From an uncultured bacterium (GTDB lineage Bacteria > UBA4055): a stretch of DNA of 26,894 nt. Below are positions 20,226-26,894 of this stretch, one piece after another (the first letter of the stretch is position 1; each line of letters starts with the position of its first letter). Where the stretch lies: the NCBI GenBank assembly GCA_937873545.1, contig CALMWI010000155.1:1-26894 (forward strand), written 5' to 3'. Below the pieces are notes generated by a model, which was not told the DNA's origin, did not search any database, and saw nothing but the letters and a program-made list of their open reading frames with translations. Position numbers and translations under genes: made by a program.

Positions 20226-20468
20226 ATGGATAAAGATAAATTGGCTGTACTTGCAGTGAGTGAAAGCGGGTTCATTTTTGATCCTGTAACCGGCCATTCA
20301 TATACCGCAAATGCTACGGGACTAAAGATCCTTGAACTGCTTAAAGCAGGAAAAGAGCCTGATGAGATCAGGTCGGTTCTTCTTGACGAGTATGACTCGA
20401 CAGAAGACGAAGTCAGCGTGGATGTTAATGATTTTATTGAAAATCTCAAAAAATATTTCTTAATATAG
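20226..20468 (+). CDS. Stand-alone PqqD-family / RiPP recognition element (RRE) protein
   Basis: 80 aa. Three short strands (AVSESG, FIFDP.TG, SYTAN), then N.TG..IL.LL..G....I...L..EY......V..DV..FI..L....LI, the PqqD winged-helix pattern. Confidence 0.85.
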   Translation: MDKDKLAVLAVSESGFIFDPVTGHSYTANATGLKILELLKAGKEPDEIRSVLLDEYDSTEDEVSVDVNDFIENLKKYFLI

Positions 20469-20477
20469 GGGATTTTT

Positions 20478-21530
20478 ATGAAGCTCACCGTAGCGGTAAG
20501 CGGGATAAACACTATTGATAATCCGGGTCCCGGCGCCGGGATATGCCGGGCTTTAAAAGAAAGCGGGATGGATGTAAGGACCATAGGTCTTGCCTATGAC
20601 GCGCTTGAACCGGGAATATATTTAGACCATATAATCGATAAAAGCTATATCATGCCTTATCCTTCAGGAAGCCGTGAAGCATTTATCGAAAGAATCAAAG
20701 ACATTCATTCAAGAGAGAGTATCGATGTTATAATTTCCGCGCTTGATGCCGAACTTCCGATCTATATGGATATCGAGCCTGTTCTGAAAGATATCGGAAT
20801 TAAGATGCTGATACCTTCAAAGGAAATGTTCAGGCTTAGAGATAAGCTCAGACTCAAGGAACTGGCTGAAAAGATCGGAGTTAAAGCTCCGGAGTACATG
20901 AGCTGCACATCTCTGGCAGATCTTCATAACGCGGTGAACGAATTGGGGTTCCCGTGCATGGTGAAAGGGCCATTCTATGAAGCGTACAAAGCTAATTCAC
21001 CGGGCGAGGCGGAAGGATATTTCGGAAAGATCGCAGCAGCCTGGGGTTATCCGATCATCGTGCAGAAATTCATTCAGGGTGACGAGTACGATGTGATAGG
21101 GTGCGGAGACGGCAACGGTAACGATATAGGAGTCTTCGCCATCAGAAAAATGACGATCACCAAGCTCGGTAAAGTATGGAACGCCGTCAGCATCAGGAAC
21201 GAAAAGCTTATCGAAGCTACAAAAAGGGTAGTAAAAGGGCTTTCGTGGCGCGGCGGATTTGAGTTCGAAGTGCTTCTTGAGGACAAGACCCAGGAAATAT
21301 ATGTACTTGAAATAAATCCGAGGTTTCCTGCATGGGTGTATTTTCCGGCAGGCTGCGGAATAAATCTGCCTGCGCGAATGGTTCAGCTTCTTACCGGGCA
21401 GGACTACGACACGCATTCCGATTATAAGAGCGGCAAGCTGATGATAAGATACACCAATGAACTTGTAAAAGATATATCCGACTTCGAACAGATCAGCACA
21501 TTCGGGGAGACATCGGAAAAAGGAGAATAG
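20478..21530 (+). CDS. ATP-grasp carboxylate-amine ligase (single-domain, CarB-like)
   Basis: Pre-grasp domain, DKLRLKELAEKIGV..P, GFPCMVKG, IIVQKFIQGDEY, GGFEFE and VLEINPRF (metal-binding E-x-N). Confidence 0.9.
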   Translation: MKLTVAVSGINTIDNPGPGAGICRALKESGMDVRTIGLAYDALEPGIYLDHIIDKSYIMPYPSGSREAFIERIKDIHSRESIDVIISALDAELPIYMDIEPVLKDIGIKMLIPSKEMFRLRDKLRLKELAEKIGVKAPEYMSCTSLADLHNAVNELGFPCMVKGPFYEAYKANSPGEAEGYFGKIAAAWGYPIIVQKFIQGDEYDVIGCGDGNGNDIGVFAIRKMTITKLGKVWNAVSIRNEKLIEATKRVVKGLSWRGGFEFEVLLEDKTQEIYVLEINPRFPAWVYFPAGCGINLPARMVQLLTGQDYDTHSDYKSGKLMIRYTNELVKDISDFEQISTFGETSEKGE

Positions 21531-21533
21531 AGA

Positions 21534-24980: not shown

Positions 24981-26389
24981 AAACAGGTGTTTTAATCATC
25001 ATTTTGAGCGTAATAAGCTCAATTCATGCGATGAGCGAAGTTGATTCGCTTTTATTCAAAGGGGACGAATATTACTTCAAGAAAAATTTTGAAGGAGCGC
25101 TTGATCTTTATTTTCAGGCCGAGAGCATCGCTCCTACTAATCAGGGCGCGAAAGAAGGAATTTACAATGCGAGCATAAATTCAGGCGGAATAAAAACCGC
25201 AAATGATTATGCGTATAAGCTTTTTAAGCTTCAGAATTCGCAGATAAATCAGGACAGGGTTATTTACTCAGACGCACTGCTTGGAAAAACATCAGGCGCG
25301 GAAAAATTCCTGAAGCAGGAGAAAGATTTCTACAGGCGAAAAGCGATCTACAGCCTGACCGGATACGGGCTGAAACAGACAGGTTTTTATATTAAAACAG
25401 CTGAATGGTACAAAAAAGCAATGGATGCAGGGTTTAAAAACGATGAATTTGAAACCGGATACAGAGAGTCTTCAAAGCTGTTAAAGGATGACAATAAATA
25501 CCTCGATGTAATTTTTTCACTTTATGAGTACGGAGATAATGACCTTTTGCTCGGAGGGTATAACTTCAACCTGAACTATAACTTCGGGCCGCAGACGCAT
25601 AAGTTCAATGTTAATCTAGTCATGCAGGGAACAAGCGTTGATAAAAAAATGAACGAAGATCTCGGATTTACTTTCTATGAAGATATTAATCAGTATGAAC
25701 TTTTCGCTCAGTACAATTACTACCTTTCCAGAAGGACTTCATTTTATATGGGGCTCAAAGCAGGATGGCTGATAAACGATTATATCCAGGATATAGAAGC
25801 TGTTTCAGCCGGATGCAGATTTTCTCTGACAGATTTTTTTAGAGCCAACACATTTATAAATGCCTCAGCGCTTAGTTACAATTTTTATGATATAAATGAG
25901 CTGGCTACCGGAAATCAGAGAAACTTTTTCACGGATTCAAACTCGCTTACATCGCTTCAATATACATTTGACGGAGCGTTCACTTATGCAGGAATTTACT
26001 TGGGCGGTGTTATAAATATAGTTCAGGATTCAGGATCGAGTTACGCTGAAGATATGATTGCTTCAGACAGAGATTCTCTTATAACGAATATTTCAGAAAG
26101 CATAATCAGGAATGAAACCAGATTTCTTTACGGCATGACCGCAGGATACAATAACGAGGAATACGATATTTTTTCGAGCTATACGACAGGCGACATGTTC
26201 CTTGTGAACACAAGCGAGGGCAGGTATCTTAACACTAATGATTCTGAACTTAAAATGAATATACTTGGCGGCGTGATTTTCAAGAAGCTCTTCGGAGAGT
26301 GGATCCTGGGCTATACTTTCTCATATTCAGATTTCGAGGATTATACGATAATGACCAATTCAATAATAGCAAACTACAGATGGAGATAA
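24977..26389 (+). CDS. Exported protein with N-terminal TPRs and a predicted C-terminal outer-membrane beta-barrel
   Basis: Signal peptide MKTGVLIIILSVISSIHA. TPR-like helices (KGDEYYFKKNFEGALDLYFQA). From about residue 170, alternating strands (YNFNLNYNF, FAQYNYYL, LQYTFDGAFTY, LGYTFSYSDF) ending in IANYRWR. ATGA overlap with the upstream gene. Confidence 0.55.
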   Translation: MKTGVLIIILSVISSIHAMSEVDSLLFKGDEYYFKKNFEGALDLYFQAESIAPTNQGAKEGIYNASINSGGIKTANDYAYKLFKLQNSQINQDRVIYSDALLGKTSGAEKFLKQEKDFYRRKAIYSLTGYGLKQTGFYIKTAEWYKKAMDAGFKNDEFETGYRESSKLLKDDNKYLDVIFSLYEYGDNDLLLGGYNFNLNYNFGPQTHKFNVNLVMQGTSVDKKMNEDLGFTFYEDINQYELFAQYNYYLSRRTSFYMGLKAGWLINDYIQDIEAVSAGCRFSLTDFFRANTFINASALSYNFYDINELATGNQRNFFTDSNSLTSLQYTFDGAFTYAGIYLGGVINIVQDSGSSYAEDMIASDRDSLITNISESIIRNETRFLYGMTAGYNNEEYDIFSSYTTGDMFLVNTSEGRYLNTNDSELKMNILGGVIFKKLFGEWILGYTFSYSDFEDYTIMTNSIIANYRWR

Positions 26390-26391
26390 AA

Positions 26392-26894
26392 ATGAAAAAG
26401 ACAGTATTACTGCTTATTATCAGCCTTTTCTTTGGCCTGTACGCCGAAATGACACAGAAGGAACTGGAAGAAGCCTATTCCGGCTCGATAAAATATGAAA
26501 CGGCTCAACGGTACGACAAAGCTATATCTTCTTTGAGCAAAGTGATTAAAGATTATCCGACCAGTTACACTGTTAATTACAGACTGGGATGGTTATATTA
26601 TCTTCAGGGGAACTATGCGAATGCCATGAAAAATCTTGAAACTGCCCTAACTGCATGTCCGTATTCGATTGAAGTTTTAAATACGATCAATCTGATATAT
26701 TCGGCTCAGATGTACTGGGATAAAGTTGAAGTTCAATCCAATAAGATAATGAAGATAGATTACTACAATTACTATGCGAACTACTGGTATTCGGTAGCCC
26801 TTTTCAAGCAGAACAAGTACGATCTAGCTATAAAAGCAGCAGATAAAATGCTGGCCGTTTTTCCTACTAATGTAGTGTTTTTGAATATATTAGC
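26392..26894 (+). CDS. Exported tetratricopeptide-repeat protein (partial, runs off the window; absent from the ORF track)
   Basis: ATG at 26392, 2 nt after the previous stop. Reads MKKTVLLLIISLFFGLYAEMTQKELEEAYSGSIKYETAQRYDKAISSLSKVIKDYPTSYTVNYRLGWLYYLQGNYANAMKNLETAL... with no stop before 26894. Confidence 0.85.
   Translation, partial: MKKTVLLLIISLFFGLYAEMTQKELEEAYSGSIKYETAQRYDKAISSLSKVIKDYPTSYTVNYRLGWLYYLQGNYANAMKNLETALTACPYSIEVLNTINLIYSAQMYWDKVEVQSNKIMKIDYYNYYANYWYSVALFKQNKYDLAIKAADKMLAVFPTNVVFLNIL

Follow-up and report, generated by a model that had tools for sequence, protein, structure and literature searches.

A widespread, undescribed six-gene operon with a lasso-type recognition element, an ATP-grasp ligase, a tailed decarboxylase and a urea-transporter-fold channel, predicted to span the cell envelope

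What six closely packed genes make together, and where their product is sent, is the question raised by the 3'-end of contig CALMWI010000155.1 (GenBank assembly GCA_937873545.1), a stretch of 26,894 nt from an uncultured bacterium of the UBA4055 lineage. This stretch, which is one entire contig (C155) of a 2.3-Mb metagenome-assembled genome (MAG), is referred to here as the window. A reading made from the sequence alone had described six co-oriented genes separated by 9, 3, 12, -4 and 2 nt, and the open reading frame (ORF) listing reproduces this layout exactly, with six plus-strand ORFs running from 20226 to the window end (Table 1). They are predicted to encode, in order, a stand-alone RRE (recognition element of peptides that are synthesised ribosomally and modified post-translationally, RiPPs), an ATP-grasp ligase, a pyridoxal phosphate (PLP)-dependent decarboxylase, a fusion of a urea transporter (UT) domain with an M23 peptidase domain, a barrel protein with tetratricopeptide repeats (TPR), and a second TPR protein. 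No curated NCBIfam model reaches its cut-off with any of the six proteins, and full-text literature searching gave no matching published pathway or paper, in agreement with the earlier statement that no characterised pathway has this gene set. The operon is concluded to be a widespread, undescribed trans-envelope system of high interest.

A scan of one genome per species found relatives of the UT-M23 fusion in 395 species genomes, and the best 80 of these 395 carriers were used for the comparison of loci. The genes for PqqD, ATP-grasp ligase, decarboxylase, UT-M23 and TPR protein occur together in 37 of the 38 loci that were informative, namely those with at least 4 kb of upstream and at least 2.5 kb of downstream flank. 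The window gene order is found in 54 loci and a permuted order in 6, an example of the latter being a Fibrobacter MAG that reads fusion, TPR-barrel, TPR, RRE, ligase, decarboxylase; by tblastn, the ligase or the decarboxylase adjoins the fusion in 70 of the 80 loci. The co-occurrence elsewhere that the sequence-only reading had proposed as its check was therefore found. Full-length relatives of the fusion are present in Delongbacteria, Cloacimonadota, Desulfobacterota, Fibrobacterota, Thermodesulfobacteriota, Aquificota, Eremiobacterota and others, to which the best 80 loci add Bacteroidota, Calditrichota, Gemmatimonadota, Campylobacterota, Planctomycetota, one Chlamydiales MAG and more; the six genes travel jointly in more than 15 phyla. 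Thermodesulfatator indicus carries the same six genes between unrelated flanks. Clustering of 780 flanking ORFs disclosed the barrel family alone as recurrent; the lineage-specific flank genes include MerR/GyrI-like regulators, sigma-54 activators and an FG-GAP-like secreted protein, and some versions hold a regulator within the operon (a MerR/GyrI-like protein in Fibrobacterota). The grouping of the operon genes is far beyond chance, and the comparison indicates that the six genes are one functional unit.

Two further occurrences are recorded here. In one distant genome (G031; locus L022, G031:C19, 7224-13758) a divergent UT-M23 gene lies beside genes for WaaA (Kdo transferase), a GT9 heptosyltransferase, two ATP-binding cassette (ABC) ATPases and a YHS-domain protein, and the trio of PqqD, ligase and decarboxylase is on a separate contig next to a two-component system. 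Bacteroides thetaiotaomicron was the sole one of 14 control genomes to match UT, below the cut-off, and has a PqqD match over the cut-off; it may carry a version of the operon and, if so, would offer a genetically tractable host.

Gene 1 matches the PqqD family (Pfam PF05402, E 8.9e-12) and is the single PF05402 match in the window's genome. A profile of the RRE family found the lasso peptide B1 proteins TfuB1 (6jx3_B, 6.9e-12) and TbiB1 (5v1u, 1.3e-11), while a true PqqD (3g2b) was matched at only 1.5e-3. The protein scores below the NCBIfam cut-offs for lasso_PqqD (37.6 against 70) and TIGR03859 (18.5 against 46). Its C-terminus is variable and holds no conserved acceptor residue; a role as a carrier of the LysW type was ruled out because the C-terminus is not conserved.

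Lasso B1 proteins read leaders of the form [Y/W]xxPx[L/V/I/F/A] (PMC13381572). In this operon a stretch of that form lies at the N-terminus of the decarboxylase, whose residues 1-22 are MKKEYIKPYIRKQTAGVMNKFG. Placed on the register of a lasso leader, the tail reads Y(-17), P(-14), I(-12), K/R(-10), G(-6), N-K-F(-3 to -1) and G(+1). The distance from Tyr to Gly is exactly 17 in 60 of 69 tails, which equals the stretch of a lasso leader between Y-17 and residue 1 of the core. These 60 canonical tails show no variation at Y-17, P-14, G-6, N-3, K-2 and G+1, and almost none at I/L-12, K/R-10 and F-1. The motif is present in all complete decarboxylases of 83 loci except that of L106, the start of which was called too far upstream. 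Within 41 related genomes every decarboxylase of the cluster type is tailed, including two that are unlinked to a channel gene (G006, G031), and 14 LysA-like paralogues are without the tail.

The same association holds at a distance. Distant decarboxylases were drawn from cluster representatives of 1.8 billion proteins, and five of them had an informative context. The three with a tail (P0172, P0173 and P0157) all adjoin PqqD and ATP-grasp genes, and the two of similar identity without a tail (P0159, P0165) lie in unrelated contexts and have no PqqD or ATP-grasp neighbours. P0157 (L150, 7001-9616) is a natural ATP-grasp::decarboxylase fusion of 871 aa with the Y-x-x-P motif in its linker. Because the tail and PqqD co-occur in distant contexts, the conserved core of the system is the RRE, the ATP-grasp ligase and the tail-bearing decarboxylase. 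As a side observation, the PqqD gene of L150 precedes P0157, the surroundings encode giant TPR, HEAT-repeat and TonB_C-like proteins, and no UT gene was detected there.

The sequence-only reading had the RRE deliver a free leader-bearing peptide, which is probably not the case. An all-against-all comparison of 4,150 ORFs of 20-110 aa within 2.5 kb of the 83 loci disclosed no conserved small ORF, yielding nothing but shadows antisense to the barrel gene and ORFs local to a lineage, and a motif scan of the 83 loci found no second copy of the leader motif of the tail. The ligand of the RRE is thus likely to be the 18-residue leader-like tail of the decarboxylase itself. A lasso-type ring in the decarboxylase was considered and ruled out, no conserved acidic residue being present at +7 to +9 after Gly22. 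In the window, scans of the ORFs gave no radical SAM enzyme, lasso cyclase, ABC exporter or precursor ORF, as had been stated before.

The two enzymes of the core were assigned from families, motifs and solved relatives. The ligase matches ATP-grasp_3 (5.8e-9), ATPgrasp_Ter and CPSase_L_D2 in Pfam, ATPgrasp_Ter being matched by all 37 members of the ligase family, and it keeps the EINPR metal/ATP motif (residues 278-282) along with an invariant N-terminal GINxxDNPGPG. Its nearest solved relative by profile is 2pn1 (1.4e-18), an uncharacterised structural-genomics protein, followed by the large chain of carbamoyl-phosphate synthetase (CPSase) and by biotin carboxylases; urea amidolyase is a weak match. 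It is not of the graspetide type (MdnB/C), given the CPSase, PylC and ATPgrasp_Ter matches and no precursor in the 83 loci.

The decarboxylase is matched by Orn_Arg_deC_N (7e-33) and by the family of the C-terminal domain (3e-12), and its best PDB match is FslC (7kh2, 1.1e-60), with diaminopimelate (DAP) decarboxylase 1twi at 5e-48 and BtrK at 1e-22. The motifs SYKTN (with the PLP lysine K82), HCHIG, GGGF, ETGR, PLCMN (with the catalytic Cys) and GAYN are kept. At the position of the Arg that holds the distal carboxylate of DAP (MRPxxY) the window enzyme has YTSAWY, and CESSD is replaced by CMNID; FslC shares both losses. The scores are below the NCBIfam cut-offs for LysA (TIGR01048, 209.5 against 297.9) and for FslC (NF041039, 222.6 against 500). 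A housekeeping LysA identity was ruled out by the sub-cut-off score, the replaced DAP residues and the presence of other LysA-like pieces elsewhere in the window's genome. FslC is an N-citrylornithine decarboxylase. Judged from these features, the enzyme belongs to the conjugate-acting FslC type and is not a free amino-acid decarboxylase, contrary to the role first assigned to it.

The fourth gene carries the membrane part. Its product was modelled with AlphaFold2 (AF2; predicted local distance difference test score, pLDDT, 91.3; predicted template-modelling score, pTM, 0.86). The UT domain is matched by Pfam UT at E 7e-51 (173.6 bits, cut-off 25), and residues 1-324 superpose in VIA-align on dvUT of Desulfovibrio (3k3f) with Z 34.7 and a root-mean-square deviation of 3.1 A over 313 residues. 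The alignment to human UT-A shows the two UT pore motifs preserved (LPVLNIPF at 125, IPVFTLPF at 281); the score for the yut equivalog is 88.6, against a cut-off of 274.6. The M23 domain (Pfam Peptidase_M23, E 2e-13; residues ~335-515) superposes in VIA-align on DipM, Csd1/2, EnpA and LytM with Z 12-14.6. Residues H356, D365, H439, H472 and H474 (PHLH) are invariant in 76 homologues, the first zinc motif having the spacing H356-x8-D365 in place of the usual H-x3-D. The last domain (523-693) has no Pfam match even at E<=5 and weakly resembles the lipid-binding sheet of vitellogenin (Z 9.2) and the lipoprotein BDI_3050 (4fvs, Z 9.0).

In the AF2 model the M23 domain follows directly after the tenth and last UT helix, with no further membrane helix between. 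The termini of UT proteins are cytoplasmic in solved structures. For these two reasons the M23 domain is predicted to face the cytoplasm, and its former placement as a periplasmic processing step was abandoned. To our knowledge a cytoplasmic M23 domain is without precedent.

A sister operon bears on the function of this domain. In one related genome (G037), and likewise on three other contigs, the UT domain has a SIR2 (sirtuin) domain as its fusion partner in place of the M23 and beta domains (Table 1). The SIR2 domain keeps the nicotinamide adenine dinucleotide (NAD) motifs, the catalytic His and the zinc cysteines, and is apparently intact. The sister operon encodes a TPR protein, PqqD, ATP-grasp, a degenerate second ATP-grasp, a tailed decarboxylase, UT::SIR2, a secreted beta protein of ~500 aa and a TPR protein; one carrier is labelled candidate division CSSED10-310. 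Since two unrelated amide-cleaving enzymes occupy the same place, the cleavage of an amide or acyl-lysine at the inner mouth of the channel would seem to belong to the mechanism; the exchange also argues that the M23 domain in the operon is unrelated to the cell wall. The tails of the sirtuin type read Y-x-A-P-x-F ... [TS]-x|[SA], are nearer to canonical lasso leaders and are without N-K-F-G. All 69 complete tails of UT::M23 loci have the motif [NS]K[FA]G, which the six M23-less systems seen lack, a contrast drawn from few independent lineages.

The products of genes 5 and 6 are predicted to form the envelope arm. The product of gene 5 has a signal peptide (1-18), and its AF2 model (pLDDT 90.7) comprises TPR helices (20-170) and 14 beta-strands (174-469). 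The barrel has no Pfam family even at E<=5; its fold matches in VIA-align are FadL (1t16, Z 19.7), CymA (19.6), TodX (18.9) and OmpG (18.2), and those with BcsC, PgaA and PelB are lower (Z 11.5-12.2). In the relatives the slot between the fusion and the TPR gene is always filled, mostly by a secreted protein of ~285 aa ending in F or W, and in some lineages this barrel family is extended by an N-terminal TPR domain, as in the window, residues 177-458 of which were linked to the ~285-aa family by hhalign (probability 75%, E 2.5e-5). Gene 6 matches TPR families at up to 2e-13, has a signal peptide without a lipobox, and is conserved in position in 69 loci. The span of compartments first proposed is therefore retained, with the RRE, ligase and decarboxylase in the cytoplasm, UT in the inner membrane, TPR in the periplasm and the barrel in the outer membrane, all as predicted.

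From these assignments a mechanism is proposed, with a probability of about 0.4, in which an RRE-assembled pair of ligase and decarboxylase would make a decarboxylated amide conjugate. The RRE would grip the Y-x-x-P-x-I part of the tail in place of a free precursor, giving a ligase-decarboxylase complex that some relatives have fused outright. The ATP-grasp enzyme would join a carboxylic acid to an amino-acid side chain by an amide, and the decarboxylase would strip the alpha-carboxylate of this conjugate, as FslC does with N-citrylornithine, to leave an amine-bearing amide. The complex would sit at the cytoplasmic face of the UT-type channel, where the C-terminal amide-cleaving enzyme, M23 here and the sirtuin in the sister operon, would trim or free the product. 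The small product would then leave by the UT pore across the inner membrane and pass the periplasm and outer membrane by way of the TPR proteins and the 14-strand barrel. An amino-acid polymer, formerly listed among the possible products, received no specific support.

Several points weigh against this proposal. The solved proteins nearest to the ligase, namely CPSase, biotin carboxylases and PurD, have very small carboxylates as the groups that they activate, and no specific conjugate is suggested by this. An M23 or sirtuin domain acting as a hydrolase would leave products that are charged, and these would be unusual for a pore of the urea type. Sirtuins usually act on protein acyl-lysine, favouring a carrier-bound over a free intermediate, and pairs of TPR protein and barrel are best known from polymer export. 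The cytoplasmic placement of M23, finally, comes from homology to the UT topology.

A more specific form of the mechanism, possible but doubtful, has a recognition domain of RiPP biosynthesis taken over to read a leader-like tail within a full-size enzyme, which would seed a metabolon of ligase and decarboxylase at the inner channel mouth. The tail would be bipartite: Y-x-x-P-x-I would be for the RRE and N-K-F|G would be a docking or cleavage site for the channel-borne amidase, with a lysine-type amine deacylated at the pore. The chemistry at the pore is here taken as acyl removal from a lysine-type amine because M23 is exchangeable for a sirtuin. If true, this would be a new protein-templated synthesis of a small molecule, with vectorial release across both membranes.

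Two other explanations turn on the tail and on the RRE. The intermediates might be tethered to a carrier, with the logic of BtrI/BtrJ/BtrK or of LysW: the ligase would load an amino acid on a protein lysine or N-terminal amine, the decarboxylase would work on the tethered group and M23 or sirtuin would cut the isopeptide at the pore, the candidate acceptors being N-K-F-G of the decarboxylase tail and Gly22 post-cleavage. Such a route would account for the swap of M23 for a sirtuin, a protein N-acyl-lysine deacylase, and for the recognisable relationship with BtrK; M23 enzymes cut bonds to Gly or side-chain-type amines, and the N-K-F-G end of the tail is conserved among canonical tails and goes with M23, as described above. 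It is nevertheless unlikely, since tails of the sirtuin type do not keep the lysine (PVNSW in L144), the ligase-decarboxylase fusion has the motif as a linker within the protein, the covariation of motif and M23 comes from few lineages and the RRE has neither a conserved acceptor residue nor a conserved C-terminus; moreover, the sum of ligation, decarboxylation and hydrolysis, with nothing further, would be no more than a plain decarboxylation paid for in ATP. Very improbable is a RiPP pathway with an unlinked precursor, in which the RRE would bind a free leader, the ATP-grasp enzyme and the decarboxylase would modify the core, and M23 would be an exporter-fused leader peptidase comparable to the C39 domain of peptidase-containing ABC transporters (PCAT). 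A B1-type RRE is a strong RiPP marker, an exporter-fused protease is classic RiPP logic and precursor genes can sit elsewhere in the genome; yet the loci of many phyla share no conserved small ORF, the sole Y-x-x-P-x-I motif per locus lies on the decarboxylase, the ATP-grasp enzyme does not belong with the graspetide ligases, peptides cannot get through a UT pore, and the deep, housekeeping-like conservation is unlike that of RiPP clusters.

The remaining alternatives start from the envelope proteins and from the channel. Modification of the envelope (peptidoglycan precursors, lipopolysaccharide (LPS) or lipid) or export of a linear polymer would make the TPR protein and barrel counterparts of AlgK/AlgE, PgaA or BcsC. 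A TPR protein with a barrel is the hallmark of synthase-dependent exopolymer export, and BcsC, PgaA and PelBC are indeed matched, at the lower Z given above; M23 enzymes normally cleave peptidoglycan, FadL tops the barrel matches, the last domain of the fusion weakly resembles lipid-binding sheets, and the UT-M23 gene of G031 has the WaaA, GT9 and ABC neighbours noted above. This explanation is quite unlikely all the same: the flank census gave no conserved glycosyltransferase, flippase, Mur-type ligase or polymerase, M23 is predicted to face the cytoplasm, the strand number of the barrel is 14 and not 16-18, a polymer would not fit through the narrow UT pore, and the LPS neighbourhood is found in one genome only. 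Transport might instead run inwards, a small neutral urea-like amide being taken up, trapped or sensed after entry by barrel and UT channel, cleaved or captured inside and fed to the ligase and the decarboxylase. The well-preserved UT fold and pore motifs would suit such a cargo, the nearest solved relatives of the ligase (CPSase, carboxylases) handle carbamate or bicarbonate, with urea amidolyase as a weak match, and the in-operon regulators of some versions, such as the MerR/GyrI-like protein of Fibrobacterota, would suit sensing. However, catabolic proteins, whether urease, allophanate hydrolase, biotin carrier or another, are not encoded by linked genes, the combination of an ATP-dependent ligase with an FslC-type decarboxylase follows biosynthetic logic, and the Rfam searches of the upstream region and of seven loci disclosed no riboswitch or nitrogen-regulation signal; uptake is accordingly held improbable.

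The borders of the operon were considered last. Upstream are prmA and housekeeping genes. The AT-rich gap after prmA contains a pair of sigma-70-like matches (20104-20132, 20177-20206) and, 5 nt ahead of the ATG of gene 1, the Shine-Dalgarno sequence AAGGAG (20215-20220). An own promoter, as claimed earlier, is plausible on these elements, but the sigma-70-like matches are not above the level of shuffled sequences (17 observed, 19.8 expected). No riboswitch or other RNA was found upstream of the operon by Rfam at E<=1, nor in seven whole loci of other phyla at the gathering score. Two wetland metagenome libraries labelled RNA-Seq (X1, X2) gave low-depth contigs of 200-350 nt with 90-100% identity to window 20235-26809 and none on prmA, and were flagged as probably DNA. 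At the other end, the final 55 nt of the window (26840-26894) overlap the end of contig C70 of the same genome (L003, G000:C70, 13926-13980), probably through the assembler k-mer, and both the continuing frame and the synteny with relatives back the join. The frame of gene 6 runs ~36 codons further on C70 to a stop, for a total of ~203 aa, which bears out the earlier view that the operon continues past the window edge. After gene 6, C70 carries a SatP/YaaH-like gene, called by eye from its translation, and then a 569-aa gene, the product of which is acyl-CoA synthetase-like in appearance. As the same 569-aa gene lies downstream of the operon in relatives, the operon is taken to consist of six genes.

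Table 1. Positions of the operon, its predicted domains and the sister operons (window coordinates unless a locus is named)
Feature	Position	Strand	Evidence
Candidate promoter region, 164-nt AT-rich gap 3' of prmA	20062..20225	+	sigma-70-like hexamer pairs, Shine-Dalgarno
PqqD-family stand-alone RRE, 80 aa	20226..20468	+	Pfam PF05402, B1-type profile matches
ATP-grasp ligase, 350 aa, CPSase/PylC-like branch	20478..21530	+	Pfam, motifs
Leader-like N-terminal tail of decarboxylase, residues 1-22	21534..21599	+	conserved across phyla
Fold-III PLP decarboxylase (alanine-racemase fold), FslC-like, 450 aa	21534..22886	+	Pfam, PDB matches, motifs
UT::M23::beta-domain fusion, 693 aa	22899..24980	+	Pfam, AlphaFold2
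Urea-transporter-fold channel domain, residues 1-328	22899..23882	+	Pfam UT, fold superposition
M23 (LytM) domain, residues 335-515	23901..24443	+	Pfam M23, fold superposition
C-terminal all-beta domain of fusion, residues 523-693	24465..24977	+	AF2 model, family-less
Gene 5, TPR and 14-strand barrel, predicted secreted outer-membrane protein, 470 aa	24977..26389	+	AF2 model
Gene 6, predicted secreted TPR protein, 167 aa up to contig end	26392..26894	+	TPR families, signal peptide
UT::SIR2 sister operons	L141 (G037:C91) 7000-14950; L143 3429-12629; L144 4271-14015		

The window holds other genes as well. As listed, an S8 subtilase ORF (16541-18202) and a GFO/IDH/MocA oxidoreductase ORF (17935-19194) share 268 nt; the domain of the oxidoreductase begins at residue 96, and the true start is probably near 18200. 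A 399-aa protein (15331-16530) carries, at its C-terminus, a sorting domain of the type IX secretion system (Por_Secre_tail, 2.1e-9), and the lineage probably has this secretion system. Two PASTA-domain proteins without a kinase (1806-2627 and 9071-10318), one of them with TPR repeats, are encoded, the first of the two genes adjoining an ORF for 1,253 aa at 2645-6406. A gene of the squalene/phytoene synthase family (1.2e-45) is at 13101-14123, in what is a small genome.

The operon is carried by hundreds of species of Aquificota, Thermodesulfobacteriota, Desulfobacterota, Campylobacterota, the FCB group (Delongbacteria, Cloacimonadota, Fibrobacterota, Bacteroidota, Calditrichota and Gemmatimonadota), Planctomycetota and others, and its solution would uncover a metabolite or an envelope process of broad ecological reach. 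It would also assign, for the first time, a role to an M23 domain in the cytoplasm and to a UT-fold channel in something other than urea handling, and would show RREs as enzyme-docking modules, which matters to genome mining, where such RREs count as RiPP markers. The question is testable, Thermodesulfatator indicus being a cultured carrier; Melioribacter roseus, the name on one related MAG locus, may be another.

Comparison with known systems places the parts as follows. Lasso peptide biosynthesis is closest for the RRE, a discrete B1-type protein for which TfuB1/FusB1 and TbiB1 are the nearest relatives (E ~1e-11). The decarboxylase tail has Y, P and I/L at the -17, -14 and -12 spacing of a lasso leader and a small residue at +1, and the combination of RRE, protease and ATP-dependent amide former has a parallel logic. 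In the window system, however, what corresponds to the leader is the N-terminal end of an enzyme of 450 aa, or a fusion linker, with no core peptide; position -2 is Lys where lasso leaders have Thr, positions +7 to +9 have no conserved acidic residue, and the B2 cysteine protease and the Asn-synthetase-like cyclase were not found among the scanned window ORFs or in the related loci with called genes. The system likewise differs from pyrroloquinoline quinone (PQQ) biosynthesis, PqqA, PqqB, PqqC and PqqE not being found among the scanned window ORFs.

The order of an amide former followed by a decarboxylase is that of the FslA and FslC (FigC) route to NRPS-independent siderophores (NIS; NRPS, non-ribosomal peptide synthetase), and the DAP Arg and the Glu of CESSD are lost in both decarboxylases. 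SbnH and PvsE, the latter with the ATP-grasp enzyme PvsA, are other conjugate-acting fold-III decarboxylases of NIS routes. Unlike that of FslA and FslC, the present system has no IucA/IucC-type synthetase in the window or the related loci, no TonB-dependent receptor and no exporter of the major facilitator superfamily or ABC type, and it adds the RRE, the tail, the UT channel and the amidase. Butirosin biosynthesis also pairs an ATP-grasp ligase (BtrJ) and a decarboxylase of alanine-racemase fold (BtrK) with a small partner protein (BtrI), and there a later amide-cleaving step takes off a protecting group. The small protein of the window is an RRE and not an acyl carrier, with no PP-binding domain or phosphopantetheine site; aminoglycoside genes are absent here, and the butirosin set has no membrane channel.

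With the urea channels dvUT and UT-B the fusion shares the complete ten-helix fold and both LPxx(T/N)xPF motifs. It differs in bearing M23, presumably cytoplasmic, and a beta domain, in having Asn or Ser for the first pore Thr, and in having no linked urease genes. Exporters of the PCAT type also fuse a hydrolase on the cytoplasmic side, as predicted for the window protein, to a membrane protein presumed to be the exit of the product; there, however, C39 is on an ABC pump, whereas M23 or SIR2 is on a passive channel, the folds are unrelated and the cargo of the window channel cannot be a peptide. The M23 (LytM) endopeptidases of peptidoglycan work outside the cytoplasm, a location that the window domain would not share, judging from its topology. 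Exopolymer export by AlgK/AlgE, PgaA, BcsC or PelB differs in its barrels of 16-18 strands, against 14 here, and the window set has no synthase gene conserved with it. Thus each of the known analogues, namely lasso B1, FslC, BtrJ/BtrK, UT and PCAT, covers one or two parts only of the operon described here.

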